Assembly: GCA_045632305.1 (NCBI GenBank)
Contig: JAZQWL010000010.1
Span: 3,399-67,398, forward strand
DNA from: Eubacteriales bacterium
Lineage (GTDB): Bacteria > Bacillota > Clostridia > Oscillospirales > CAG-272
Direction of reading: 5' to 3'
Length of the DNA: 64,000 bases
Part shown: in pieces, positions 10,606 to 63,424 of the stretch
Numbering within the stretch: position 1 is the stretch's first letter
Layout: each line of letters opens with the position of its first letter
The notes under the pieces: generated by a model
Database searches by the model: none
Told to the model about the DNA's origin: nothing
Seen by the model: only the letters and a program-made list of their open reading frames with translations
Position numbers and translations under genes: made by a program

Positions 10606-12411
10606 ATGAAAAAGATATTTTCCTTAGTTCTTGCATTTTTAATGGTTGTTACAGCATTCGCTTCCTTCACCGTGTACGCAGCTGACGGAGAGGCGGGCAA
10701 CTGGGAAATGCATCTCGACGCATTTGACGAGTCAAAGCTTGCTTCAGGCGGTGAAATATTTGTGTCGACTCCCGGCTATAATTACACGGACGATGGCTTT
10801 GAGGTCATTCCCGCAAAATATACGGGCACTCAGGCAAAGTATACTGTAATCAGTAAAGAAAAGTACAGCGCAAAGAATTTCTCGGTCAAGATAAGAATTG
10901 ATGAATTTGATATTTCCGGCGACGCGTGGCTCAGCTTCACATTCTGGAGCGAAAAGAACGGTCTGGCGCAGGGAAGCGGCTCGGGTGAATACGGCTACGG
11001 TTGGACGTCACTTATAAAGGACTGTGTTGAAGGCGGCACACGTGACGGAAACCTTTCCGTTTTTGAGGCGTACAGCCAGGGTACAAAAGCTCAACCGGGC
11101 GGATTTCAGAAGCTTTCCTCGGCTGACTTCACTCCCGTTAACACGGACGGAAAGCAGATCGTAGAATTTAAGGTTGAAAATCATAACGTATTTATAAACG
11201 GCGTTCAGCTTGATCAGACAAGCGCCGCAAGTCTTCGTAACGCATTCAGAACGGAATCCTTCCAGGCGTATTTTGGCATTTCCGTAAAGAGCGGTACTGC
11301 GGGCAAGCCTATTAAGTTTACGATTCTTGAGGTGAACGGAGAAAAGCCCACGGGTAGTGATTCGCTCTCTCCTGTAAACAGAGGTAAGACCTATGGCGAG
11401 ATGAAGGATCCTTCAACGATTCCCGCAGGTACGCCCGGTATTCTTCTTGACGGTACACTCGCAAATCAGAACAGCAAGCTCCCCTCGATCACAAACGGCT
11501 CCGCATCCGCAACGGATAACGGCGGAATTAAGATTACGGCAAGCTCTCTTAATTGCTCCGCTAATTTTGCGGTTAATGATAGCTACAGCGTTGACGTCAA
11601 CGATTTCCCCTACGTTGCGATAGTTTTGAAAAACTTCTGCACTTGCGGACGCGAGGACGGTCTTACAATCGCTGAAAACTGTTATTTCAAGGAAAACGGT
11701 GACATTTATTATTGTGTGGGTGATATTATCTCTCCCGACGAAGAGCATAAGCTCACTGTAAACGCAAATAATATGGTCGACGTATCTCCCGCTGACAGCG
11801 AGGATTATTATCTTCTTGTTTATGCCAAGATAGACACATCCGAGCTCGAAAATGAGGACGTGCGTATCAACAGTGTTAAATTCGATTTCCGCAACATGAA
11901 GCCCACACAGGGCATTGACAGCTTTGAAATCGAATTTGCGGGCTTCTTTAGAAGCGTTAAGGATATGGTTTCCTTTGCTACAAGCGAAGGCCTTTCGCTC
12001 ATAGATGACGAGATCTCTTACGAGGATCCTGAGGAACCTACAGAAGAGCCCACAGAAGAGCCCACAGAAGAGCCCACTGAAGAGCCCACTGAAGAGCCCA
12101 CCGAAGAGCCCACTGAGGAACCTACAGAGGAACCCACAGAAGCTCCGACCGAAGAACCCACAACAGAAGAGCCGACTGAAGAGCCCACAGAGGCGCCGAC
12201 AGACGCTCCTGCGACCGAAGAGCCCACAGAAGCTCCTGCAGAGCCCGAGACTGAGGCGTCGACGGGTAACGGTGAGAATACTACTACCGCCGCGACGGGC
12301 AACGAGAGTAAGGGCTGCGGCTCCGCTATCGGAATGGGTGTTGTTGCCATGATCACAACTGCTTGTGTTTCCGGTATTATCACATTCGGAAAGAAAAAGA
12401 AAAACAAATAA
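10606..12411 (+). CDS. secreted/cell-surface protein, paralog A: signal peptide, conserved ectodomain, (EEPT)n linker, C-terminal GCGS + TM + basic tail
   Basis: AGGAGA RBS. Signal peptide ends ...TVYA-AD. Homologous over its whole length to 12705-14408. C-terminus is KGCGSAIGMGVVAMITTACVSGIITFGKKKKNK. Confidence 0.8.
   Translation: MKKIFSLVLAFLMVVTAFASFTVYAADGEAGNWEMHLDAFDESKLASGGEIFVSTPGYNYTDDGFEVIPAKYTGTQAKYTVISKEKYSAKNFSVKIRIDEFDISGDAWLSFTFWSEKNGLAQGSGSGEYGYGWTSLIKDCVEGGTRDGNLSVFEAYSQGTKAQPGGFQKLSSADFTPVNTDGKQIVEFKVENHNVFINGVQLDQTSAASLRNAFRTESFQAYFGISVKSGTAGKPIKFTILEVNGEKPTGSDSLSPVNRGKTYGEMKDPSTIPAGTPGILLDGTLANQNSKLPSITNGSASATDNGGIKITASSLNCSANFAVNDSYSVDVNDFPYVAIVLKNFCTCGREDGLTIAENCYFKENGDIYYCVGDIISPDEEHKLTVNANNMVDVSPADSEDYYLLVYAKIDTSELENEDVRINSVKFDFRNMKPTQGIDSFEIEFAGFFRSVKDMVSFATSEGLSLIDDEISYEDPEEPTEEPTEEPTEEPTEEPTEEPTEEPTEEPTEEPTEAPTEEPTTEEPTEEPTEAPTDAPATEEPTEAPAEPETEASTGNGENTTTAATGNESKGCGSAIGMGVVAMITTACVSGIITFGKKKKNK
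12028..12240 (+). repeat. 12-bp in-frame tandem repeat encoding (E-E-P-T)n
   Basis: gaagagcccaca-type units repeat about 15 times with synonymous or near-synonymous variation inside paralog A. Confidence 0.85.
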
Positions 12412-43702: not shown

Positions 43703-44137
43703 TTATTTTTCAAGATAATGTTTAAGGTAAAGGATCGCTTCTCTGTATCCGTCGATGCCAAGTCCCATAAAGGTTTTTACCGCTACAAGCGAAACGTAGG
43801 AGATCTGTCTGAAGCCCTCTCTTTTCGACACGTCGGAGATATGCACCTCGACGGTGGGAATGCCGACCGCCTTGAGCGCGTCGAGAATTGCGATCGAGGT
43901 ATGAGTGTATGCTGCGGGATTTATAACGATACCGTCAAAAATCTTGTATGCGTACTGAATTTTATCTACGATCGCACCTTCGTGGTTGGATTGATAGATC
44001 TCAAAATCAATATTATTCTCTGAGCAGGTCGCCTTTACGAGCTTGCACAGCTCGGAATAATTTTGTTTTCCGTAAAGCTCGGGCTCGCGTATGCCGAGCA
44101 TGTTGAGATTAGGGCCGTTAATAATTAAAAGGTTCAT
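43703..44137 (-). CDS. aroQ: type II 3-dehydroquinate dehydratase
   Basis: LLIINGPNLNMLGIREPE.YG and SNHEG motifs. Start at ATG 44137. Confidence 0.9.
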   Translation of the reverse strand: MNLLIINGPNLNMLGIREPELYGKQNYSELCKLVKATCSENNIDFEIYQSNHEGAIVDKIQYAYKIFDGIVINPAAYTHTSIAILDALKAVGIPTVEVHISDVSKREGFRQISYVSLVAVKTFMGLGIDGYREAILYLKHYLEK

Positions 44138-44147
44138 AACTTTCACC

Positions 44148-45227
44148 TCATCTGTCAAGTAGAATATCGTAGATCGCAATCGCTGCCGCCGCTTCAAATA
44201 CGGGGACTGCGCGCACTACAACGCAGGGATCGTGTCTGCCGCTTATTTTGAGCTTCACGTTTTCCATTTTGGAGAGCGAAACGCTGTTTTGCTCTTTTGC
44301 TATGGAGGGTGTGGGCTTCATTGCGGCGCGGAATATTACGGGCATACCGCTTGTCATACCGCCAAGTATTCCGCCGCAGTTGTTGGTCCTTGTGAAGATC
44401 GAACTGCCGTCGGTGTAGAATTCATCGTTGTTTTCCGATCCGCGCAGTGCGGCTGAGCCGAAGCCAAGACCGAATTCAATGCCCTTAACCGAGGGAATGC
44501 CGAATACAAATGATGAAATTCTGCCCTCAATTCCGTCGAAGATATGCTCGCCGTGACCGGGAGCAAGTCCCGTGATCGCGGTTTCAACAACGCCGCCGAC
44601 GGAATCACCGTCAAGGCGCGCTTCGTCGATGATCGCCTTTATTTTTTCGCCCGCTTCTTCCGATATGGTGGGGAATTCCTTTCCTGCGAGCGAGGTCATC
44701 TGTTCTTCGGGATCTATGGGATCGAAGCGCTTATCGGTAACGCTTCCGACAGAGCAGACGTGCGACGCTATTTTGATATTTTGTTCTTTTAAGATCTGCA
44801 AGCATATTCCGCCCGCAACGCACATAAGAGCGGTAAGTCTGCCCGAGAAATGCCCGCCGCCGCGAAGGTCGACGTTATCGCCGTATTTCATTTTTGCGGC
44901 ATAATCCGCGTGGGAGGGGCGGGGAATATCTGTCAGTGACGAGTAGTCGGACGAATGCTGATTTGTGTTGAAGATAGCGCATTCGATCCTATCTCCCGTT
45001 GTTACGCCGTTTTCGTCAAGTCCTGAGGAAAACACGGGGACGTCGGGCTCTTTTCTTTGCGTGGAGTATTTGTTCTGCCCGGGCGCTCTTCGTGACATGA
45101 AGGCGCAAAGCTCGTCGGTGTCGATCTTGTGATCTGCGGGAATACCGTCAAGAGTCATATAGATCTTTTCGTCGTGCGAGCCGCCGAAGATGCTCAGCTT
45201 GAGATTTTTTCCGTAGGTTGTAGACAT
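44148..45227 (-). CDS. aroC: chorismate synthase
   Basis: GGSHD..., RPSHADY and GRHDPC motifs. Confidence 0.9.
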   Translation of the reverse strand: MSTTYGKNLKLSIFGGSHDEKIYMTLDGIPADHKIDTDELCAFMSRRAPGQNKYSTQRKEPDVPVFSSGLDENGVTTGDRIECAIFNTNQHSSDYSSLTDIPRPSHADYAAKMKYGDNVDLRGGGHFSGRLTALMCVAGGICLQILKEQNIKIASHVCSVGSVTDKRFDPIDPEEQMTSLAGKEFPTISEEAGEKIKAIIDEARLDGDSVGGVVETAITGLAPGHGEHIFDGIEGRISSFVFGIPSVKGIEFGLGFGSAALRGSENNDEFYTDGSSIFTRTNNCGGILGGMTSGMPVIFRAAMKPTPSIAKEQNSVSLSKMENVKLKISGRHDPCVVVRAVPVFEAAAAIAIYDILLDR

Positions 45228-45230
45228 AAT

Positions 45231-46490
45231 TTAAACCTCTTTTGCGTGCGTTAATATATCGAAATCGTGTTTGAAATTAGGGTAGGATTTGTTTATAGCT
45301 TCAAATCCGCTTATAGTAACGGGATTTTCACAAACGGTTGATGCGATAGCACCGCTCATAGCGATTCTGTGATCGTTTGCGGAATCGATATTGCCGCCCA
45401 AAAGCGCGGGGACACCTATGATCTGCATTCCGTCGTCGGTGGGGGTAACGTTGCCACCCAAGGCGGAGATCATTTGGCACGTGCTGCGGATTCGGTCGCT
45501 CTCCTTGATCTTAAGTCGTGCTGCGTTGTAAATTACCGTTTTCCCGTCGGCTACCGATGCCACGGTTGCGATTATCGGCACAAGGTCGGGAATTTGAGAC
45601 GCGTCAAGCTCTATGGCATAAAGCTCGCCTCGGCAAACCGTAACGGAGTTGCCGCATTTCGAGATTTTTGCACCCATTTTCTCTAAAACGTCAAGGATCG
45701 CGCGGTCTCCCTGCGAGGAATTGAGATCGAGTCCCGTGACTGTTACGGGCATGTCACTCAAAGCCCCTGCGCACAGAAAGAACGCCGCGTTCGACCAGTC
45801 GCCTCCGACAACAGTTTCCTTAGGAGAGGCGAATCTTCCCTTGGAGCTTATTATAAATTTGTTATCTTCGCAAACGATATTTCCGCCAAAGAGGGAAATT
45901 GCGTCGAGCGTCATATCAATATAGTTTTTGGATTCGATTTTGCCTTCAAGCGTTAAGGTTGAATTTCCCTCAAGTATAGATAGGGCAAACAGAAGTCCGC
46001 TTATAAATTGAGAAGATACGTTTGCTGCTATTTTGTAGTCGCCACTTTTGAGCTTTCCACTGATGCAGAAAGGATTTTCACCCTGAGGCGACATCTGTAT
46101 TCCGTTATCCGAAAGAAGCTCGTAGAGAGGGGATAGCGGACGCTCGGGAAGGCGGCCGTGCATTGTGATTTTTGCGCTGACGCCCAATGCCGCGATTATT
46201 GGAATGAGAAATCTAAGTGTGGAGCCCGATTCACCGCAATCGAGTGCCGCGTTGCCACTGGGCGTTGAGATGGGCTCGACGAGAAAGCCATCAGTTGTTC
46301 TTTTTATATTCGCGCCAAGTGAATTGAGGCAAGAAACCGTAGCGTCTATATCGTTGTTTGTATCAGTACAGATTATTCTTGTAGAGGAGTCCGACAGAGC
46401 GGCGCAGATAAGCTGTCGATGCGCCTCGCTCTTGGAGGAGATCGCTCGAATCTCGCCCGAAAGAGAGGGCATATTGAAGGTAATATCCAT
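45231..46490 (-). CDS. aroA: 3-phosphoshikimate 1-carboxyvinyltransferase (EPSP synthase)
   Basis: SKSEAHR, GESGSTLRF and DHRIAMS motifs. Confidence 0.9.
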   Translation of the reverse strand: MDITFNMPSLSGEIRAISSKSEAHRQLICAALSDSSTRIICTDTNNDIDATVSCLNSLGANIKRTTDGFLVEPISTPSGNAALDCGESGSTLRFLIPIIAALGVSAKITMHGRLPERPLSPLYELLSDNGIQMSPQGENPFCISGKLKSGDYKIAANVSSQFISGLLFALSILEGNSTLTLEGKIESKNYIDMTLDAISLFGGNIVCEDNKFIISSKGRFASPKETVVGGDWSNAAFFLCAGALSDMPVTVTGLDLNSSQGDRAILDVLEKMGAKISKCGNSVTVCRGELYAIELDASQIPDLVPIIATVASVADGKTVIYNAARLKIKESDRIRSTCQMISALGGNVTPTDDGMQIIGVPALLGGNIDSANDHRIAMSGAIASTVCENPVTISGFEAINKSYPNFKHDFDILTHAKEV

Positions 46491-46492
46491 CT

Positions 46493-47539
46493 TTATACTC
46501 CCATCTCAAGAATTTTCGGAAGCTCGTTCATGCTGACACGGTAAAGCTTTGTGTCGCCTATCGAATAGGGAAGAACGAGATTTATGCCGCTTGATCCGAC
46601 CTTTTTGTCGGAGACCGCAACTCTGTAAATTTCATCGGGAGTGAAGGGGCATTCCGTCGGGAGATTGTAGAGCTTTAAGATGCTTTTGATCTCTTCAAGC
46701 TCTCCGCTAGAAAGGTAGCCCATTTTGTTTGAAATTTTACCGACGTAATACATGCCGATAGCTACGGCAGAGCCGTGAGAAATTTCAAAGCCCGAGTTCT
46801 GCTCGATCGTGTGAGCGATCGTGTGACCGAGATTTAATAGCTGTCGCATACCCGTGTCGCGTTCATCAATATTGACGATGTCGCGCTTGTTCTTGACGCA
46901 GTTTTCAATTATATCGTCGATGCAGTCAATGCCATCCTTGAGCTTATCAAATAAGGGGCGATCGTTTATGATTCCGTACTTAATAACCTCGGCGCATCCG
47001 TCCGCGAAAATGTCATCGGGGAGGGTATCAAGCGCCGTAGGATCGCAGAGCACGAGGGAGGGCTGATAGAACGCGCCCGCCAGGTTTTTACCCGCGTCGA
47101 GATTTATAGCGGTCTTGCCTCCAACCGAGGAGTCAACCATAGAGAGCAGAGTTGTGGGAATCTGTACAAATTCGATGCCGCGAAGGTAGCTTGAGGCAAC
47201 AAAGCCCGCAAGGTCGCCTACAACACCGCCGCCGAGAGCAACTATAATGTCGGTACGGGAGATCTTATGGTTTGCAAGGAAGTTGAGAATCGCAATGAAA
47301 TTTTCGGCACTCTTTGAGTCTTCGCCGTGCGGGATTACGTATTTTAAAACCTCGAAACTATTGTCGCATAAGGATTTTTCAACCTTTGCAGAGTAGAGCG
47401 CGTCTACCGTATCGTCGGTAATTATTACCGCGTTTTTGGATTTTGTAATCTCGCGAACGTATCTGCCGCAGGTATCTATTAAATTGTTTTCTATGAGAAT
47501 ATTGTAATTTCTTGTGGCGTTTACGTTTACAATTTTCAT
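46493..47539 (-). CDS. aroB: 3-dehydroquinate synthase
   Basis: LGGGVVGDLAGF, VQIPTTLL and LNLGHTIAH motifs. Confidence 0.9.
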   Translation of the reverse strand: MKIVNVNATRNYNILIENNLIDTCGRYVREITKSKNAVIITDDTVDALYSAKVEKSLCDNSFEVLKYVIPHGEDSKSAENFIAILNFLANHKISRTDIIVALGGGVVGDLAGFVASSYLRGIEFVQIPTTLLSMVDSSVGGKTAINLDAGKNLAGAFYQPSLVLCDPTALDTLPDDIFADGCAEVIKYGIINDRPLFDKLKDGIDCIDDIIENCVKNKRDIVNIDERDTGMRQLLNLGHTIAHTIEQNSGFEISHGSAVAIGMYYVGKISNKMGYLSSGELEEIKSILKLYNLPTECPFTPDEIYRVAVSDKKVGSSGINLVLPYSIGDTKLYRVSMNELPKILEMGV

Positions 47540-47541
47540 TT

Positions 47542-48786
47542 TTATCCTCTGATTAAAGTTATAATTTTTTCAACACAAGTGGTGATGTCGCTATCGTTTT
47601 CAACCACTATGTCGGCGAATTTTTCGTACAAGGGTAGGCGTTTTTCGTACATTTTTTGAAGATCGGCGCCTATCGAGAGCGGTCTTCCGTCGCGGGAGAG
47701 CTTATCTATATCTCGTTTTATAAATACGATAATTCCGTTCTGGTGAAGTGGCTCGTAATTGTCGGAAACCGTCACCGCGCCGCCGCCTGTGGAAATGATT
47801 TTTCCGCTTTGCTTTCCCGCATTTTTTATCTCGTTATGCTCAAGCGAGCGGAAAACACCCTCGCCAAAGGTCGAGAATATCTCGGGGATGGTCATTTTTG
47901 AATTTTTCACGATCTCCTCATCCGTGTCGATAACTTCTCGTTCAAGCGTCTGTGCAAGTGCTTGGGCAACGGTTGATTTGCCGCATCCGGGCATACCGAT
48001 AAGAACGATGTTGAGGGTTTTTTCTTCAATTATTTTCTTGATTCTGTCGATCTCTCGGTCGGGAATCTGCTCGCCTGTGAATATTTCCGAGGCGCGCTTT
48101 GCTTGTGCTACGAGCATTGTAAGTCCGCCGAACGCGGGAATGGAAAGTCTTTCCGCATCGAGGAGAAGCTTTGTTTTAGACGGGTTGAAGACAATGTCAA
48201 ATACGCCCTTGATATCTTTGAATTTTTCAAGATCAATTTTACATTCAAGGTTGTTCGGATACATGCCGACGGGGCTTGTGTTGATGATAATATCCGCGTC
48301 GCCGTGAAGGGAGTAAACGTTGTCGTAATTAACCTCGCCTTGACGGGAAACGCAAACGATACAACTTGCGCCGAGGAAATTGCAAACTGCTCGCGCGGTA
48401 AGAAATGAGCCGCCGCTGCCGAGAATAAGGACTTTTTTGCCCGAGAGGTCGATGTTGCTTGATTTTATAAGATAGGACAGTCCGTAGAAGTCGGTGTTGT
48501 CGCCTCTGAGCTTGCCTTCCTTTGTGTGAGTAATGCAGTTGACACAACCGATGGCGCGCGCCTCGTCGGAAATTTCGTCGAGGTATTCCATAACGGCAAC
48601 CTTGTACGGAATCGTTACGTTGGCGCTTGTGTATTTATCGGATTTTATAAATGATTCCAGGTCCTCTCGCTTGATTTCCGCTAAAGAATACGGGTAGTCC
48701 GCAAGATGGGAATGTATCATGGGGGAAAAGCTATGAGAGAGCTTTTCGCCTATAAGTACACAGTTTTGATTTTTCGCCTTTACCAT
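47542..48786 (-). CDS. aroE/aroK: fused shikimate dehydrogenase (N-terminal) / shikimate kinase (C-terminal)
   Basis: AroE part has GEKLSHSFSP, NVTIPYK and GSGG. AroK part has Walker A IGMPGCGKST. Single 414-aa ORF. Confidence 0.85.
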   Translation of the reverse strand: MVKAKNQNCVLIGEKLSHSFSPMIHSHLADYPYSLAEIKREDLESFIKSDKYTSANVTIPYKVAVMEYLDEISDEARAIGCVNCITHTKEGKLRGDNTDFYGLSYLIKSSNIDLSGKKVLILGSGGSFLTARAVCNFLGASCIVCVSRQGEVNYDNVYSLHGDADIIINTSPVGMYPNNLECKIDLEKFKDIKGVFDIVFNPSKTKLLLDAERLSIPAFGGLTMLVAQAKRASEIFTGEQIPDREIDRIKKIIEEKTLNIVLIGMPGCGKSTVAQALAQTLEREVIDTDEEIVKNSKMTIPEIFSTFGEGVFRSLEHNEIKNAGKQSGKIISTGGGAVTVSDNYEPLHQNGIIVFIKRDIDKLSRDGRPLSIGADLQKMYEKRLPLYEKFADIVVENDSDITTCVEKIITLIRG

Positions 48787-48804
48787 AGCTTCCTCCGTTT
48801 TAGT

Positions 48805-49953
48805 TTAAATAATTTCGTTGTACGCGCCAAGGAGCTTAAAGTCCTCGCCCCTCGCCTCAAGATCGCAGAGAAGGTCGCGCAATCTTTCGGAATAAACCGA
48901 AACCGTGAAGTCGAAGTAGAACATAAATTCAAAATCGCGGTCGGGGATGGGGGACGATTCCAGCTTTGTCATATCAATGCCGAGCGCGTTGAAGCAGGAA
49001 AGCGCGCGATAAAGCTCACCCGGACGGTTCTTGGTGACAAGCATAAGCGTCAGCTTGTCCGCTCCGGGATAGATTTCGGGCTTCTTTGAAATGCAGATAA
49101 ATCTTGTATGGTTGTTTCCGCTATCCTGAATGGACGGCGCGATATTTGTAAGGGAATAAAGCTCACCGCAAGCGCGCGAGGAGATTGCTGCAAGATCACG
49201 TCTGCCGCTCTCTTTGACGAGCTTTGCCGCCATAGCGGTATTTTGGCAAACAGTTACCTTTATGCTCGGGTGTTTTGATAAGAATCCCGCGCATTGGCTT
49301 ATCGCCTGCTCGTGGGAGATGATTTCCGTAATGTCATCGAGAGACACGCCTTGATTTACAAGGAGATTGTGGTCGATCTTAAGACGTACAGAGCGAACAA
49401 TGTTGAAGTTGTGAGAGAGCATAAGCTCGTAAACCTTCTTAACCGATCCCGCCGTGCTGTTTTCAATGGGAAGCACACCGTAGTCGCATTCACCATGCTC
49501 GATCGCCTCGAAAACGTTTTCAAACGTCTTGTAAAAGCTTATATCGGGCAGGGAAAAGAGCTTTGTCGCCGCAATCTGCGAGTATGCGCCCTCAACGCCC
49601 TGACACGCCACGTGAGCACGCGTGGGAAATTCCTTTTTGGTGGAATTAAGGGACGCCTTTATTTGTTTGTAGATTTGAGATTCCGAATTTAGTATCTTGT
49701 GTTGATACGCCTTCGATACGTCGAGCATCGTGTTGTAGAGCGTGAGCGCATAAGTGTCAAGCCCTTCGCCCGCCATATTGCAGATCTTTGTGAGAAGCGC
49801 GCGCTCGCGTTCGGGATCGAATACGGGGAGATCATGCTCCGCCTTGTACTGCGCAACCGATGAGGCGCAAGCCATTCTTCTTTTGAAAAGCTCGACGATC
49901 TCGCGGTCTATTTCGTTTATTTCTTCTCGGATTTCTGATAAGTTAAGTTCCAT
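48805..49953 (-). CDS. pheA: bifunctional chorismate mutase / prephenate dehydratase
   Basis: N-terminal CM_2 helix region (IREEINEIDREIVELFKRR), PDT domain and C-terminal ACT (TRFICIS, ESSPIP). Confidence 0.85.
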   Translation of the reverse strand: MELNLSEIREEINEIDREIVELFKRRMACASSVAQYKAEHDLPVFDPERERALLTKICNMAGEGLDTYALTLYNTMLDVSKAYQHKILNSESQIYKQIKASLNSTKKEFPTRAHVACQGVEGAYSQIAATKLFSLPDISFYKTFENVFEAIEHGECDYGVLPIENSTAGSVKKVYELMLSHNFNIVRSVRLKIDHNLLVNQGVSLDDITEIISHEQAISQCAGFLSKHPSIKVTVCQNTAMAAKLVKESGRRDLAAISSRACGELYSLTNIAPSIQDSGNNHTRFICISKKPEIYPGADKLTLMLVTKNRPGELYRALSCFNALGIDMTKLESSPIPDRDFEFMFYFDFTVSVYSERLRDLLCDLEARGEDFKLLGAYNEII

Positions 49954-49963
49954 TTTGTATCCT

Positions 49964-50812
49964 TTAAGAATCTATTTCTTCTTTTGCAATTCGTCCGTCG
50001 CGGAGGAGACGGAGCATTTTTTCCTTGTCGCCGTGCTCAAGCGCGTCCTTGTATTCTTCGAGTGAATTGATTATCGTGTCAAGCTCGTATATAAGCGGCT
50101 CGGCATTTTCAAAGAAAAGCTCCGTCCACATCTGTTCGTTGAGCCATGCAACGCGTGTCATGTCGCGATAGCTTCCCGCAGAAAATCCCTTGTGCTCGCG
50201 AGCCGTAGGGCTTTTTACGTACGCGTTGGAAACCACGTGCGCAAGCTGGGATGTAAAGGCGATGAGCTTGTCGTGTTTTTTTGCGTCAACGTAGGAGAAT
50301 CTTCCGAATCCCGCAGGGAGGAGAAGCTCCTTTACGCGGGAGATAAGCTCGATATCATTGAAATTCGGAGGCACGATAACCATGGGCGCACCTCGGAACA
50401 TGTCTGCTTTGGAGTTCTTGTAGCCCGAGAACTGCGTGCCCGCCATGGGGTGACCGCCAACGAACGTAAATCCGTGCTTTTTGGCAAGCGCAAAGCCGGC
50501 TTCGCAAACCTTTGCTTTTGTGCCGCAGAGGTCCATAATTATTGTGCTTTCGCTGAACAGATGGGCGTTCTTTTCCATATATTCGACCGTCGCTTCGGGA
50601 TAAAGACCGATAAAGATTATGTCGCATTCGGGAATCGTGCGCTCGTCAAGAGGCGCATCAACAACTCCTGACATGATTGAAAAGTCGAGAATGGAACGGC
50701 TTCTGTTCTGTGCAAATATTTGAATGTCCTGTGAGTTTTCTACGGCGTAGACTCTGTAAGCTCGCGCAAGTGAGCCGCCTATGAGTCCGAGGCCTACGAT
50801 ACCTATTTTCAT
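49964..50812 (-). CDS. tyrA: prephenate dehydrogenase
   Basis: MKIGIVGLGLIGGSLA Rossmann motif and GGHPMAG motif. Confidence 0.85.
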   Translation of the reverse strand: MKIGIVGLGLIGGSLARAYRVYAVENSQDIQIFAQNRSRSILDFSIMSGVVDAPLDERTIPECDIIFIGLYPEATVEYMEKNAHLFSESTIIMDLCGTKAKVCEAGFALAKKHGFTFVGGHPMAGTQFSGYKNSKADMFRGAPMVIVPPNFNDIELISRVKELLLPAGFGRFSYVDAKKHDKLIAFTSQLAHVVSNAYVKSPTAREHKGFSAGSYRDMTRVAWLNEQMWTELFFENAEPLIYELDTIINSLEEYKDALEHGDKEKMLRLLRDGRIAKEEIDS

Positions 50813-50824
50813 ATAAGTTACCTG

Positions 50825-51826
50825 TTACATGCAATTTTTGATTTTGTTTACGGATGTCATAACATCGCTAAACTGTTCGGGTGTGAGTGACTGCGCGCCG
50901 TCGCAGAGTGCCGCCTTGGGATTGTTGTGAACCTCGATCATAAGTCCGTGCGCTCCTGCTGCTACCGCCGCCTGAGCCATGGGCTTTACAAGTCGCTGTG
51001 AGCCCGTAGCGTGGCTGGGGTCGACGATTACGGGAAGATGTGTCAATTCCTTGAGCACGGGAACGCAAGCCAAGTCGAGAACGTTTCTTGTGTACTGTGA
51101 GTCGAAGGAACGAATACCGCGCTCGCAGAGAATGATATTTTCGTTACCGCCTGCCATAATATATTCCGCGGACATAAGCCATTCTTTAATAGTTGCAGAC
51201 AAGCCGCGCTTCAAGAGAATGGGCTTCTTTGTTTTGCCAAGCTCCTTTAAAAGCTCAAAGTTCTGCATGTTGCGGGCGCCAACCTGAATTACGTCAACGT
51301 CCTCGAAAAGAGGGAGGTGATGAGCGCTCATGATCTCGGTCACAATGGGAAGCCCCGTTTCCTTTTTTGCCGCAAGGAGATATTCAATACCAGTGTCCGC
51401 AAGACCCTGGAAATCGTACGGAGAGGTTCTCGGCTTGAATGCGCCGCCACGGAGCATTGTAGCGCCCGCTGCCTTAACTGCCTTTGCAATTTCAATTACC
51501 TGTTCTTCGGATTCAACCGAGCAGGGACCCGCCATAACCGCGAAAATGTCGCCGCCAACGCTTGTGTTACCGACGCTTACAATAGTGTCCTCGGGGTGGA
51601 ATTTTCTGTTTGCGCTCTTGAACGGCTCGGAAATTCTTCTTACCGCCTCAACAATATCGAGAGAGCGGAGAAGATCCTCGTCAATTTTCGACGTATCACC
51701 GACAAGTCCTACGATAGTTGTAAATTCACCCGCGGAGAGGTGAACGGAAAGTCCCTGGGATTCGATCCAGTGTGTGAGCTTTTCTATCTGTTCGCGGCTG
51801 GTACCCTGTCTTATAATAGCAATCAT
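50825..51826 (-). CDS. aroF: 3-deoxy-7-phosphoheptulonate (DAHP) synthase, type I-beta with N-terminal regulatory domain
   Basis: AGPCSVES, LRGGAFKPRTSPY and DPSH motifs. Has a ~70-aa N-terminal ACT/FL-like extension. Confidence 0.9.
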   Translation of the reverse strand: MIAIIRQGTSREQIEKLTHWIESQGLSVHLSAGEFTTIVGLVGDTSKIDEDLLRSLDIVEAVRRISEPFKSANRKFHPEDTIVSVGNTSVGGDIFAVMAGPCSVESEEQVIEIAKAVKAAGATMLRGGAFKPRTSPYDFQGLADTGIEYLLAAKKETGLPIVTEIMSAHHLPLFEDVDVIQVGARNMQNFELLKELGKTKKPILLKRGLSATIKEWLMSAEYIMAGGNENIILCERGIRSFDSQYTRNVLDLACVPVLKELTHLPVIVDPSHATGSQRLVKPMAQAAVAAGAHGLMIEVHNNPKAALCDGAQSLTPEQFSDVMTSVNKIKNCM

Positions 51827-51845
51827 TGTGTTATCCTCGCTTTTT

Positions 51846-51890
51846 TAAAAGTAAAACGGCACTCCACAGGGATTTTTTCTGTGGAGTGCC
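51846..51890 (-). terminator. leader terminator (attenuator) immediately upstream of aroF
   Basis: 12-bp stem GGCACTCCACAG/CTGTGGAGTGCC followed by GTTTTACTTTT. It ends about 20 nt before the aroF RBS. Confidence 0.7.
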
Positions 51891-51965
51891 TAATCTTGAG
51901 AATCTATGGCACAAAAGAATCTGAATTCTTTTTTCGCATCAAAAATCACCTTTACTTAATTGTTA

Positions 51966-52040
51966 TCAGCAATAAAAGTAAAAGTAATAATATACTGTTG
52001 CGAAAATAGTGGAAGCCATAACGTTTCTCGCTTTCTTCAT
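51966..52040 (-). CDS. candidate aromatic leader peptide MKKARNVMASTIFATVYYYFYFYC
   Basis: 24 codons plus tandem stops TGA TAA. Seven consecutive Tyr/Phe codons lie between the operon promoter and the leader terminator. The SD is weak, and ATG at codon 8 is an alternative start. Confidence 0.55.
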   Translation of the reverse strand: MKKARNVMASTIFATVYYYFYFYC

Positions 52041-52052
52041 TATATTACATAT

Positions 52053-52081
52053 AGTCTATCACTATTTTTTAGGTTTGTCAA
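52053..52081 (-). promoter_or_regulatory. sigma-A promoter of the aro operon leader
   Basis: Minus strand reads TTGACA-17 nt-TAGACT. Confidence 0.55.
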
Positions 52082-52109
52082 GTCCTTTTGATATTTTTCT
52101 GTCGATTTT

Positions 52110-52138
52110 TTAACGTTTTGTATTTAAATAAATATAAT
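52110..52138 (+). promoter_or_regulatory. candidate sigma-A promoter driving plus-sense transcription of repeat-element copy 2
   Basis: TTAACG-17 nt-TATAAT. The conserved block begins about 15 nt downstream of the -10. Confidence 0.45.
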
Positions 52139-52144
52139 GGCTGA

Positions 52145-52324
52145 AGGAATTTAGATGCAGAAGTCGTGATCGGGCAATCGTAGCCGTACTTGGTACGGCA
52201 GAGAGCCTGATCTCGGCTAATGTGCCACATAAAATGGAGAAACCCGACGGATGTCGGGTTTCAACAATAAATGTATTACCTTTGAATTTAACATTGACAT
52301 CGACTGCCTTTTTGAGTGGCACAT
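52145..52324 (+). ncRNA. unclassified structured intergenic element, copy 2 (homologous to 16482-16661)
   Basis: Same architecture as copy 1, with its own candidate promoter. A G-T wobble in helix P1 favours plus sense. The GC hairpin at 52241-52262 may act as a terminator shared with asnS. Confidence 0.5.
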
Positions 52325-52348
52325 GTTCTGCGCTAAATTCTTCTGCCA

Positions 52349-53743
<1,395 letters not shown>

Positions 53744-53895: not shown

Positions 53896-54561
53896 TTATT
53901 TGTTGAGCTTTTGAATTGATTCTGCGGATGCGAGAATGATAAGCTCCATATCCGAATCAAGCGGCATCTGGGGATTAATGTTTATGCTCACCTCGTCACC
54001 CTTGCGGATCGCAACGATATTGATAGAATACTTTTTACGCAGATTCAACTCGATCAGGGATTTGCCCACCCATTCGTCGCGCACGTCGATCTGCACCATG
54101 GAAATATTGTCGGAGAGCACCATCATGTCGACAAAGCCCGAGCTTAACAGATTCTTCGCCATTCTTTTTCCCGAATCGTTCTCGGGGAATACAACTCTGT
54201 CCGCGCCGACCCTTTTGAGTATTTTTCTGTGCATCTCGTCCTTGCATTTTACGATGACGTTGGGAACTCCACGCTCCTTGCAGAGCATCGTAGCAAGCAC
54301 GCTTGCCTGAAAATTGTCCGCCATGGCGATAATGACGGTTTCAATACTGTGAATACCTATCTGCTCGAGCACGTCGGGATTTGTAACGTCGGCGCATTTG
54401 CAGATGGGAATATCCTTCATTGCCTCTTCGACCTTTTCGGGCTCGACGTCGATGGCGAGCACATCGGCTCCGTTTTTGTAGAGCGTTTCTGCGACCGCCT
54501 TGCCGTATCTGCCAAGACCGAATATCGCGTACGTTTTATTTGAAGTGTTTTTCTTTTTCAT
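53896..54561 (-). CDS. ktrA: potassium uptake protein, TrkA/KtrA-type NAD-binding peripheral subunit
   Basis: IFGLGRYGKAVA Rossmann (TrkA-N) plus TrkA-C. ATG 54561 lies after GGGGGT. Confidence 0.8.
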   Translation of the reverse strand: MKKKNTSNKTYAIFGLGRYGKAVAETLYKNGADVLAIDVEPEKVEEAMKDIPICKCADVTNPDVLEQIGIHSIETVIIAMADNFQASVLATMLCKERGVPNVIVKCKDEMHRKILKRVGADRVVFPENDSGKRMAKNLLSSGFVDMMVLSDNISMVQIDVRDEWVGKSLIELNLRKKYSINIVAIRKGDEVSININPQMPLDSDMELIILASAESIQKLNK

Positions 54562-54578
54562 GATGTTACCCCCAAGGA

Positions 54579-55934
54579 TCATCCTACGCTGATCTCTTCC
54601 GTAGGATGGGAAATAAGATTTTTACCCGTTTTTTTGATATTGAACGCTATAGCCAGGGAAATGGGCCCGATTCTGCCAAGATACATAGTCGCCGCGACTA
54701 TTAATTTTCCCGCGTTGTTGAGCATGGGAGTTACTCCGCGGGTAAGACCTACGGTCGAGGTCGCGCTGACCGCCTCGTATATTATATTTATCGCGTCCGC
54801 CTCGGGTGTCACGGCGGAGAGCAGAACTGATGACGTTATTATGATCGACATAGCCATAAAGATCACGCCGAGCGCCTTGCCAAGGGATTCCTTTGAAATT
54901 CCTCTGCCGAAAAGCACGGTCTGTTCCTTGCTTCTTATCGCCGCTATCGCGGAGGTCGCCACGATGATGACAGTCACGGTCTTGACACCGCCTGCAGTAC
55001 CTACGGGAGATCCGCCGATAAACATAAGGACTATAGAAACGATAGACGTGGATTCACGGAACAGCTCCTGAGGTACCGTAAAGAAGCCCGCGGTTCGCGT
55101 GGTGACGGATTGGAAGAAGGATACCTGGATTTTGTCGAACAGGTTCAATGCGCCAAGAGTTTCGGGATTGCTGTATTCTAAGAGGAATACGAGCAGAGCG
55201 CCGATGAAAGTAAGCAAAAGAGTTGAGACGATCACTATTTTTGAGTGAAGTGAGAGAGAGAGGAAGGGCTTTTTCGGCTTTTCCTTCATAATTCTCAAAA
55301 TATCCCACCATACGATATAGCCCACGCCGCCTATGATGATGAGCGCGCAGGTTACAAGGTTTACTATGGGGTTTGTTGCGAAGGAGACAAGACTGTCGGG
55401 GCCTAAAATATCGATTCCCGCGTTGCAGAATGCGGAAATTGAATTAAAGAGAGCGTACCAGATGCCCAAAGCTCCGTATTTCGGAATAAACACCGTCATG
55501 TACAGAAGAGCGCCCGCGCCCTCAACGATGAGAGTGCCGATTATGACCTTCTTGACGAACTTCACAATGCCCGACAGGGAATTGAGGTTGAAAGCGTCCT
55601 GGATGAGCAATCTGTTGCCAAGTCCTATTCTTTTTTGAAGCGCTATCATAACTCCCGACATTACGGTTATAACACCGAGACCTCCGACTTGAATGAGCAC
55701 AAGCAGAACTATCTGACCGAAAACACTCCAATGCGAAAACGTGGGAAGAGTTACAAGCCCCGTTACGCAGGTGGCTGTCGTCGAGGTAAAGAGAGCGTCG
55801 ATAAACGGCGTCGCCTCGCCCGATCTTGTGCTTATAGGAAGCATGAGCATAAGAGTGCCTACAAGTATTACCGACAAAAAGCTCAGCATTATGATATGAG
55901 AGGTTGATAGCTTTATTTTCTTTGATTTTTTCAT
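54579..55934 (-). CDS. ktrB: potassium transporter, TrkH/KtrB-type membrane subunit
   Basis: About 450 aa polytopic protein with repeated pore-loop segments (TTATCVTGL, FCNAGI, TRTAGF, STVGL). ATG 55934 preferred. Confidence 0.8.
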   Translation of the reverse strand: MKKSKKIKLSTSHIIMLSFLSVILVGTLMLMLPISTRSGEATPFIDALFTSTTATCVTGLVTLPTFSHWSVFGQIVLLVLIQVGGLGVITVMSGVMIALQKRIGLGNRLLIQDAFNLNSLSGIVKFVKKVIIGTLIVEGAGALLYMTVFIPKYGALGIWYALFNSISAFCNAGIDILGPDSLVSFATNPIVNLVTCALIIIGGVGYIVWWDILRIMKEKPKKPFLSLSLHSKIVIVSTLLLTFIGALLVFLLEYSNPETLGALNLFDKIQVSFFQSVTTRTAGFFTVPQELFRESTSIVSIVLMFIGGSPVGTAGGVKTVTVIIVATSAIAAIRSKEQTVLFGRGISKESLGKALGVIFMAMSIIITSSVLLSAVTPEADAINIIYEAVSATSTVGLTRGVTPMLNNAGKLIVAATMYLGRIGPISLAIAFNIKKTGKNLISHPTEEISVG

Positions 55935-55968
55935 AAAAACCTCATTGTATTTTAGCATATACAAAATA

Positions 55969-55997
55969 ATTATATCACGATGATAAGTATTTGTCAA
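55969..55997 (-). promoter_or_regulatory. sigma-A promoter of ktrB-ktrA
   Basis: Minus strand shows perfect TTGACA-17 nt-TATAAT. Leader is about 35 nt. Confidence 0.65.
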
Positions 55998-56112
55998 TCT
56001 TTTGAAAAGCACAGTCGGAAGATTTTGCTATTCAGTTTTTTGCAGGATTTTTTATCAGGCGTCAAAATATGGGTAATATAAGCATATATGAACATGTGAG
56101 GTGATGCTTGTC

Positions 56113-62907: not shown

Positions 62908-63372
62908 TCATTAAAGCAAAAACACCGCATAGGCATTCGCCTACGCGGTATTTTTGGTCGAAGTGACACGATTCGAACTGAGATTTGTCGCGTCGCTTTC
63001 GCGACATCAAATGCTCCAAATCAAGAGAATGCAGGCATTCTCTTTGCAACAAAATCCAAATGGCTACCGCCGCCATTTGAATTTTCTGCACGTTCTCGCA
63101 TGTGTCATTAAAGCAAAAATACCGCGCAGGCATTCGCCTACGCGGTATTTTTGGTCGAAGTGACACGACTCGAACTGAGATTTGTCGCGTCGCTTCCGCG
63201 ACATCAAATGCTCCAAATCAAGAGAATGCAGACATTCTCTTTGCAACAAAATCCAAATGGCTACCGCCGCCATTTGAATTTTCTGCACGTTCTCGCATGT
63301 GTCATTAAAGCAAAAATACCGCGCAGGCATTCGCCTACGCGGTATTTTTGGTCGAAGTGACACGACTCGAAC
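62908..63372 (-). repeat. 197-bp tandem repeat (2 full units + 71-bp partial unit merging into tRNA-Pro). Each unit = ~125-nt hairpin-rich segment + last 24 nt of tRNA-Pro + terminator hairpin
   Basis: Unit starts at 62908, 63105 and 63302. Units A and B show about 6 mismatches. tRNA 3' fragments lie at 62955-62978 and 63152-63175. Terminator copies lie at 62917-62954, 63114-63151 and 63311-63348. Confidence 0.85.
63311..63348 (-). terminator. intrinsic terminator of tRNA-Pro
   Basis: Minus sense reads ATACCGCGTAGGC-GAAT-GCCTGCGCGGTAT followed by TTTTTG. The mismatch position is a G-U wobble only in minus sense. Confidence 0.7.
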
Positions 63373-63424
63373 GTGCAGCATCTTGCTCCCAAAGCAAGCG
63401 CGCTACCAATTGCGCCACACCTCG
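63349..63424 (-). tRNA. tRNA-Pro (anticodon UGG)
   Basis: Hand-folded 76-nt cloverleaf. Acceptor CGAGGTG/CACTTCG, D stem GCGC/GCGC, anticodon stem CTTGC/GCAAG with loop TTTGGGA, T arm GCACG-TTCGAGT-CGTGT, encoded CCA. Confidence 0.85.

Follow-up and report, generated by a model that had tools for sequence, protein, structure and literature searches.

A predicted leader-peptide attenuator with a tyrosine/phenylalanine codon run upstream of the aroF-headed aromatic amino acid operon of Clostridia

The stretch of 64,000 nucleotides (nt) from contig JAZQWL010000010.1 of a Eubacteriales bacterium, referred to as the window in the following, carries on its minus strand an operon for aromatic amino acid biosynthesis, which is preceded by a short open reading frame (ORF) with a run of Tyr and Phe codons and by an intrinsic terminator. 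A first-pass annotation, made from the sequence alone, had proposed that this region is an attenuator of the pheL/trpL type, and this proposal was supported by conservation in relatives, by covariation within the antiterminator helix and by a comparison of cognate with non-cognate pairing partners. Judged from sequence and comparative analysis, the element is very likely a classical ribosome-mediated transcription attenuator (trpL/pheL type) of the aroF-tyrA-pheA-aroEK-aroB-aroA-aroC-aroQ operon.

NCBIfam assignment of the eight ORFs on the minus strand identified aroF, tyrA, pheA, an aroE-aroK fusion, aroB, aroA, aroC and aroQ, in agreement with the earlier suggestion of an eight-gene aro/pheA/tyrA operon headed by aroF. 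The operon contains both tyrA and pheA and no trp genes.

50825..51826, minus strand: aroF (DAHP synthase), first gene of the operon (NCBIfam NF006421, 492 bits)
51838-51834, minus strand: Shine-Dalgarno (SD) sequence GAGGA of aroF
43703..50812, minus strand: remainder of the operon (NCBIfam), consisting of the following genes
50812-49964, minus strand: tyrA (NCBIfam)
49953-48805, minus strand: pheA, chorismate mutase/prephenate dehydratase (NCBIfam)
48786-47542, minus strand: aroE-aroK (NCBIfam)
47539-46493, minus strand: aroB (NCBIfam)
46490-45231, minus strand: aroA (NCBIfam)
45227-44148, minus strand: aroC (NCBIfam)
44197-43703, minus strand: aroQ (NCBIfam)

The aroE-aroK gene is a single ORF of 414 amino acids (aa) with shikimate dehydrogenase at residues ~1-250 and shikimate kinase at residues ~253-412. 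The ORF listed for aroQ begins with TTG and shares 50 nt with the 3' part of aroC; as its family match only sets in at residue 20-23, the true aroQ start is probably located downstream of the listed TTG.

The region between promoter and aroF contains the following elements, in which 1:2 denotes the anti-antiterminator helix, 2:3 the antiterminator and 3:4 the terminator.

52076..52081, minus strand: -35 hexamer TTGACA of the leader promoter (promoter scan; invariant in the relatives L081 and L001)
52053..52062, minus strand: extended -10 element GTGATAGACT (TG-n-TAGACT; GTGnTAnACT kept in the three-way alignment)
51966..52040, minus strand: leader ORF of 24 codons plus TGA, product MKKARNVMASTIFATVYYYFYFYC, with two stops at its end
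52035-52027, minus strand: SD-like sequence GAAAGCGAG
52017..52019, minus strand: second in-frame ATG, the probable true start, yielding the 17-aa peptide MASTIFATVYYYFYFYC
51997..52006, minus strand: segment 1, UUUUCGCAAC (Phe-Ala-Thr codons), paired with the 3' end of segment 2, UGCGAAAA, in the minimum-free-energy fold
51972..51992, minus strand: regulatory codons UAU UAU UAC UUU UAC UUU UAU (codons 17-23), also the 5' arm of the inner 1:2 hairpin
51963..51968, minus strand: tandem stops UGA UAA within the 1:2 hairpin loop
51931..52008, minus strand: complete 1:2 (anti-antiterminator) hairpin, -22.2 kcal/mol by folding
51933..51950, minus strand: segment 2, GGUGAUUUUUGAUGCGAA, which provides the 5' strand of the antiterminator and corresponds by homology to GUGAUUUGUGCUGCAA, the consensus of the family
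51913..51932, minus strand: spacer hairpin AAAAGAAU-UCAG-AUUCUUUU of 8 base pairs (bp), inside the antiterminator junction
51908..51912, minus strand: GUGCC, paired in the antiterminator fold with GGCAC at the base of the terminator 5' arm
51858..51890, minus strand: intrinsic terminator (3:4) with a 12-bp stem and a 9-nt loop, -22.4 kcal/mol by folding
51847..51857, minus strand: U-tract GUUUUACUUUU

The previously noted TTGACA-17-TAGACT promoter was recovered by the promoter scan at 52081..52053 (minus strand), with an additional upstream TG, and is conserved in the closest relatives L001 (uncultured Eubacteriales) and L081 (metagenome), whose AroF proteins are the nearest ones at 84-86% identity. 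The window could be aligned with both of them across promoter, start codon, segment 1, aromatic run, segment 2 and terminator. The upstream gene asnS (53743-52349, minus strand) is followed by its own 10-bp GC-rich terminator with a T-run at 52262-52239 (minus strand), and the aro leader, which has a promoter of its own, is therefore a distinct transcription unit. Further upstream of asnS are the potassium-uptake genes trkA (TrkA_N/TrkA_C) and trkH (53896-56012, minus strand), which are unrelated to the leader.

Translation reproduced the 24-codon ORF and, within it, the seven consecutive Tyr/Phe codons that had been described; no other ORF in the window has seven out of seven aromatic residues. 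The homologous start of the leader is probably not the ATG at 52040 but the second one at 52019, as suggested by alignment: it corresponds to the only ATG of L081 and L001, which in each case follows a GGAG-type SD, and it is also the position at which the match to the family covariance model described below begins. Counted from this codon, eight codons precede the first aromatic codon in the window, and the family median is likewise eight. This start removes the earlier concern that the ORF might be nearly leaderless, while the weak SD that had been pointed out alongside is real. A second aromatic-rich ORF at 10636-10583 (minus strand), MQELRKISFSFYFSFKQ, is antisense to the ribosome-binding site and start of a plus-strand gene at 10606 and was dismissed as a chance occurrence.

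To determine how widely this arrangement occurs, 80 relatives of aroF from genomes (64-84% AroF identity) and 80 from metagenomes were collected, of which 153 loci were usable, and the 300 nt upstream of aroF were searched. A leader, taken as a short ORF with at least five aromatic residues out of eight together with a terminator, was present at 120 of the 153 loci, so that the combined conservation of in-frame Tyr/Phe run, hairpin and terminator, which the first-pass annotation had named as a check, was confirmed. In the first set, all 64 leader-bearing loci had a terminator with a strong hairpin and a U-tract ending 14-114 nt before aroF. As the region has a GC content of 34% and TTT and TAT codons are common in such AT-rich DNA, an ORF of this kind might in principle arise by chance beside an ordinary terminator. 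A short ORF with at least six aromatic residues out of eight was, however, found in 57/81 on the forward strand compared to 1/81 on the reverse strand, 5/1620 shuffles and 3/495 other tiles of the same loci, and the metagenome set gave 46/73. This enrichment, the 120 conserved loci and the match to the family model (E=6.9e-9; see below) effectively refute a chance origin, to which we assign next to no probability.

The named carriers of the leader belong to four orders of Clostridia, represented by Oscillospiraceae (Eubacteriales), Lachnospirales, Christensenellales and Peptostreptococcales. Cultured carriers include Oscillibacter valericigenes Sjm18-20 (AP012044.1, L037), Hominicoprocola fusiformis CLA-AA-H269 (L013) and Pseudoflavonifractor sp. 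AF19-9AC (L014). Where a downstream gene could be recognised in leader-positive loci, tyrA came directly after aroF in 96 of 107. The runs of the family comprise 301 Phe, 291 Tyr and 5 Trp residues, and this balance between Phe and Tyr with Trp nearly absent fits an operon carrying tyrA and pheA but no trp genes. In most of the 33 leader-negative loci (e.g., L020, L036, L096, L098, L106, L107, L125 and L132), an ORF on the same strand ends less than 130 nt upstream, so that aroF probably occupies an internal position within an operon; a leader, if there is any, would be located further upstream.

A covariance model of the leader (R1) was built from 17 relatives, excluding the window. When applied to the complete window, R1 gave a single significant, full-length match at 52019-51853 (minus strand; 50.7 bits, E=6.9e-9), and the next-best matches in the window had non-significant E values of 0.3-2.5 (best 0.32). 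In 99 loci, the model found 57 leaders upstream of aroF. Curated Rfam leader-peptide families include the proteobacterial Phe leader and the Lactococcus Leu/Phe leader. In line with the proposed exclusion of a T-box, neither the window nor any of 40 related loci had a T-box match at the Rfam gathering threshold, and none appeared at E<=10 within 51700-52400; the 20 low-scoring or leaderless loci scanned were likewise without a T-box. Within 51700-52400, Rfam 15 at E<=10 yielded only chance-level matches, the best being SQ2397 with 19 bits compared to a gathering score of 100, and 20 leader-bearing relatives gave no Rfam matches. The only match at gathering threshold in the whole window was a tRNA gene at 63352-63424 (minus strand; RF00005, 63.5 bits).

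Two variations of the leader were observed. In an Oscillibacter-type subfamily (L025, L031, L035, L037, L038, L068, L093, L104, L109 and L113), the leaders are located ~90-110 nt upstream of aroF and encode a conserved peptide, ...AEYRYFSFTYF(Y/M)GKAYFGLAEN..., whose aromatic codons do not form a consecutive run but are interspersed among others; the ORF crosses segment 2. The amino acid conservation in this subfamily probably reflects constraints of RNA pairing. At L034:1297-1420, and also in L129, a good R1 match (58.7 bits) coincides with an ORF, MNVSIRMFRYFFTRTIS, that has four aromatic codons only.

At the level of RNA, relatives share a conserved strand with the consensus GUGAUUUGUGCUGCAA (GUGAUUUGUGCUGCA-like), which is positioned at or just past the leader stop. 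This segment 2 pairs without gaps with the 5' arm and loop of the terminator, more clearly so in relatives than in the window, and alternatively with codons of the aromatic run and those immediately preceding it. It thus provides the 2:3 alternative which the first-pass annotation had not been able to resolve. Across the family, 2:3 duplex energies had a median z of -1.9 relative to shuffled spacers, and cognate pairs were more stable than non-cognate ones (mean -14.1 compared to -10.4 kcal/mol; Wilcoxon p=1.6e-10). An attempt with RNAalifold on a MAFFT alignment of 27 sequences returned zero pairs, the alignment being too gappy, and a tighter set of 17 leaders was used instead, in which explicit structures were scored on a structure-blind MAFFT alignment (A3). 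In A3, the 14-bp 2:3 helix was 84.9% paired compared to 27-52% for slid controls and contained four compensatory pairs, with a covariation score reached by none of 500 shuffles, and the 3:4 terminator was 90% paired with six compensatory pairs. A fixed-column count of antiterminator pairs on an alignment derived from the model (A4) was dropped, as the register of the partner shifts between terminator length classes.

The partner of segment 2 in the 1:2 helix, segment 1, typically consists of UUU GCA GCA (Phe-Ala-Ala) and part of the aromatic run. The 1:2 duplex had a median z of -2.3 in the family, and segment 1 is located between ~26 nt before the first aromatic codon and 2 nt past it, a position that would place it within the footprint of a stalled ribosome. 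The last aromatic codon is mostly located 15-26 nt before segment 2, and therefore a ribosome stalled on the run would leave segment 2 free. Conversely, the ORF crosses segment 2 or stops no more than 13 nt from it in 54 of 56 members, and therefore a ribosome finishing the leader would mask segment 2.

The reading frame bears on the possibility that the ORF is incidental and that the U/A-rich triplet run is bound by a protein, a tRNA or a small ligand in the manner of TRAP, a T-box or a riboswitch. Such binding would be in keeping with a run that is a near-repeat of UAY/UUU triplets and at the same time a hairpin arm. A binding site would, however, require neither start codon and SD nor frame or stop placement. 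The runs in the Tyr/Phe frame lie in an ATG-initiated ORF at 119 of 120 loci, 109 of them with SD and at a median of eight codons from the start, as opposed to 13 (3 with SD) and 6 (none with SD) ATG-initiated ORFs in the other two frames. The stop position is tuned to segment 2 in the 54 of 56 members mentioned above, and there was no T-box or other relevant Rfam match even at E<=10. We therefore regard recognition by such a factor as highly improbable.

A further possibility is that the aromatic nascent peptide itself arrests the ribosome, as in TnaC or SecM, either intrinsically or by sensing free Phe or Tyr rather than tRNA charging. The extreme aromaticity, with a median of eight Phe and Tyr residues per peptide, and the conserved peptide of some subfamilies such as the Oscillibacter type point in this direction. 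On the other hand, sequence and length vary widely outside the run (110 distinct peptides among 120), and the order of Tyr and Phe within it is not conserved. The conserved flanks F-A-A/T and ...SDLCC coincide with RNA segments 1 and 2, and the pairing of these segments explains both motifs as constraints at the RNA level. In addition, if abundance of the amino acid caused arrest, the operon would be switched on in the presence of ample product, the opposite of what a biosynthetic operon requires. Peptide arrest is therefore very unlikely, if marginally less so than recognition by a factor, and ribosome-mediated attenuation governed by tRNA charging remains the preferred interpretation.

Within the window itself, the leader (52052-51827) folded at -64 kcal/mol with z=-6.5 relative to dinucleotide shuffles. 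Folding of the minus strand, as had been recommended, recovered all hairpins described before: the aromatic-codon hairpin with its CUGAUAA loop, the 8-bp hairpin at 51932-51913 and the 12-bp terminator. The latter was missed by a simple terminator scanner, probably because its 9-nt loop exceeds the scanner limit of 8. The U-tract had been placed about 20 nt before the ribosome-binding site of aroF; its end at 51847 is instead 8 nt before the SD and 20 nt before the ATG. An alternative fold was revealed only when the nascent transcript was cut before the terminator 3' arm and the ribosome was placed on the aromatic codons. Under these conditions, the 3' arm of the first hairpin becomes free and pairs with the terminator loop and 5' arm, the antiterminator target being 51890-51870. 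The antiterminator formed in this way has the shape of a three-way junction (-16.6 kcal/mol). The pairing between GUGCC and GGCAC, suggested earlier as a possible antiterminator, does occur in this fold but constitutes only a minor part of it.

Several observations weigh against a functional attenuator of this kind. Helix 1:2 was only 55-69% paired in A3. In the window, the U-tract is interrupted, and the SD is degenerate, reading GCGAGA where L081 and L001 have a GGAG-type sequence. With regard to masking by a terminating ribosome, the window is among only two of the 56 members that deviate, as 19 nt separate its leader stop from segment 2; with this early stop, repression would have to rely on release of the ribosome and formation of 1:2. 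The window antiterminator was not significant when taken alone, as shuffling of segment 2 barely altered its energy (z=-0.9). Finally, the terminator won at equilibrium under every ribosome-footprint constraint applied to the window fold. A thermodynamic antiterminator was therefore rejected, and the switch to the antiterminator would have to be kinetic.

The shuffling result, the SD and the early stop, together with an R1 score that is mid to low for the family, may also be taken to suggest that the family is a real attenuator of which the window copy has decayed to a largely constitutive, leaky terminator with little response to Tyr or Phe. However, the seven aromatic codons, the promoter, segments 1 and 2 and the terminator are all intact, and the nascent fold still pairs 8 of the 12 nt of the terminator 5' arm as well as the loop. 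Moreover, the strong 1:2 hairpin is maintained by a compensatory change (UUCGCA/UGCGAA in the window, UUUGCA/UGCAAA in L081 and L001), which argues for continued selection on the window copy. Decay of this copy thus appears unlikely, although it is the most probable of the alternatives considered, and a working attenuator is favoured for the window as well.

The following elements expected of a trpL/pheL-type attenuator were identified by sequence analysis and comparison with relatives: a short ORF past the promoter, a cluster of cognate codons, a 3:4 terminator, a 2:3 antiterminator and a 1:2 helix, to which conservation, covariation and geometry in the family can be added. From this arrangement, we infer that the leader is translated, that ribosomes stall within it and that readthrough responds to the supply of Tyr and Phe. 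According to this model, transcription would start from the promoter at 52081-52053 and a ribosome would read the leader, probably from the ATG at 52019. Under a shortage of charged tRNA-Tyr or tRNA-Phe, the ribosome would stall in the seven-codon run (51992-51972) and cover segment 1 (51997-52006) and the 5' arm of 1:2, leaving segment 2 (51950-51933) free. Aided by GUGCC (51912-51908), segment 2 could then pair with the emerging terminator 5' arm and loop (51890-51870), and if 2:3 forms before the terminator 3' arm is made, no terminator would arise and RNA polymerase would proceed into aroF. If both tRNAs are charged, the ribosome would reach the tandem stops and depart, the 1:2 hairpin (-22.2 kcal/mol) would sequester segment 2, the 12-bp terminator (-22.4 kcal/mol) would form and transcription would stop at the U-tract.

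Control of amino acid and tRNA-synthetase genes in Firmicutes is mainly attributed to T-boxes, with TRAP controlling trp, and attenuation by leader peptides is regarded as largely proteobacterial and actinobacterial. With respect to the wider role of the leader, we lean towards the view that this order-spanning, uncatalogued family constitutes the main transcriptional control of aro operons in gut and rumen Clostridia, that one leader integrates two tRNAs, and that the family may share its lineage with uORFC-13-1, a predicted upstream ORF (uORF) described below. Leader attenuation would then probably be the normal setting of shikimate-pathway expression in the carriers, many of which are abundant gut and rumen anaerobes, and classical attenuation, not T-box or TRAP, would be central to the control of aromatic amino acids in a major Firmicute lineage. 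The model predicts that aro-operon expression follows the charging of tRNA-Tyr and tRNA-Phe, which bears on gut microbial aromatic metabolites, and the mixed Tyr/Phe run makes it possible to test directly if a single leader senses two amino acids. With its conserved segment 2, terminator and aromatic uORF, the family is ready-made for annotation of the Rfam type, and it accounts for many unannotated Tyr/Phe-rich small ORFs in metagenomes. The device is thus widespread and testable in important gut anaerobes, while being mechanistically unsurprising.

In classical attenuation, a ribosome stalled at regulatory codons frees segment 2 (PMC11802643, PMC9413887). The Clostridial leader resembles E. 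coli pheL-pheA and trpL-trp in having a leader ORF with codons for the product, mutually exclusive 1:2, 2:3 and 3:4 helices and a terminator before the first gene. It differs from both in that no Rfam leader model matched at E<=10 and that the host is a Clostridial Firmicute and not a gammaproteobacterium. Furthermore, pheL and trpL respond to one amino acid and govern one branch, whereas the Clostridial run mixes Tyr and Phe codons and the leader would govern the whole common pathway together with the tyrA and pheA branches. T-box leaders of Firmicute aro, tyr and trp genes also sense tRNA charging and choose between terminator and antiterminator (PMC2494555), but they bind the tRNA directly, while the proposed sensor here is the translating ribosome.

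Within Firmicutes, attenuators with His leaders have been predicted in the B. cereus group, Peptostreptococcaceae and Erysipelotrichales (PMC9413887). Like the Clostridial family, they combine leader peptide, terminator and antiterminator and were found by comparative genomics; they differ in amino acid, in operon and in their narrow taxonomic spread. Upstream of aroF, Brewer et al. (2021, PMC8632094) predicted uORFC-13-1 from 24 representatives, which come from Acholeplasma, a Firmicutes-related lineage, and from environmental sequences without assignment. Its elements are a promoter and a ribosome-binding site, a start codon, a U-run with Phe codons, a further base-paired element and, adjacent to these, an intrinsic terminator, and attenuation was proposed (PMC8632094). 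The motif was absent from the Rfam 15 output. Compared by description only, both are located directly upstream of aroF and share a uORF with Phe codons and an adjacent terminator; unlike the Clostridial family, uORFC-13-1 is described with 'at least one' Phe codon and without Tyr/Phe run or antiterminator. The statement of the first-pass annotation that a leader peptide would be an unusual solution in Firmicutes was therefore only partly right, as it is the prevailing arrangement in the sampled Clostridial clade and both the Firmicute His leaders and the Acholeplasma aroF uORF had been predicted before. In principle, attenuation at aroF is thus not new, and the same is true of attenuation by leader peptides in Firmicutes. 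A description of the Clostridial leader family was not found in the open-access full-text literature, which is no proof of absence, and this family, which is large and marked by a long run of mixed Tyr and Phe codons and by a conserved segment 2, appears to be undescribed so far.

Like the Firmicute His leaders and uORFC-13-1, a closer precedent than E. coli trpL and pheL is the aroR leader (Phe-Tyr-Phe) upstream of aroF in C. glutamicum, for which attenuation was demonstrated experimentally (Neshat et al., 2014, as cited in PMC11802643) and for which, according to the account given there, a response to Phe, not Tyr, was reported (PMC11802643). As in the Clostridial family, a leader with Phe and Tyr codons precedes the gene for DAHP synthase. 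The minimal leader of L034 is closer to the Phe-Tyr-Phe of aroR. Compared by description only, aroR belongs to an actinobacterium and has three aromatic codons, as opposed to 5-16 in the Clostridial family.

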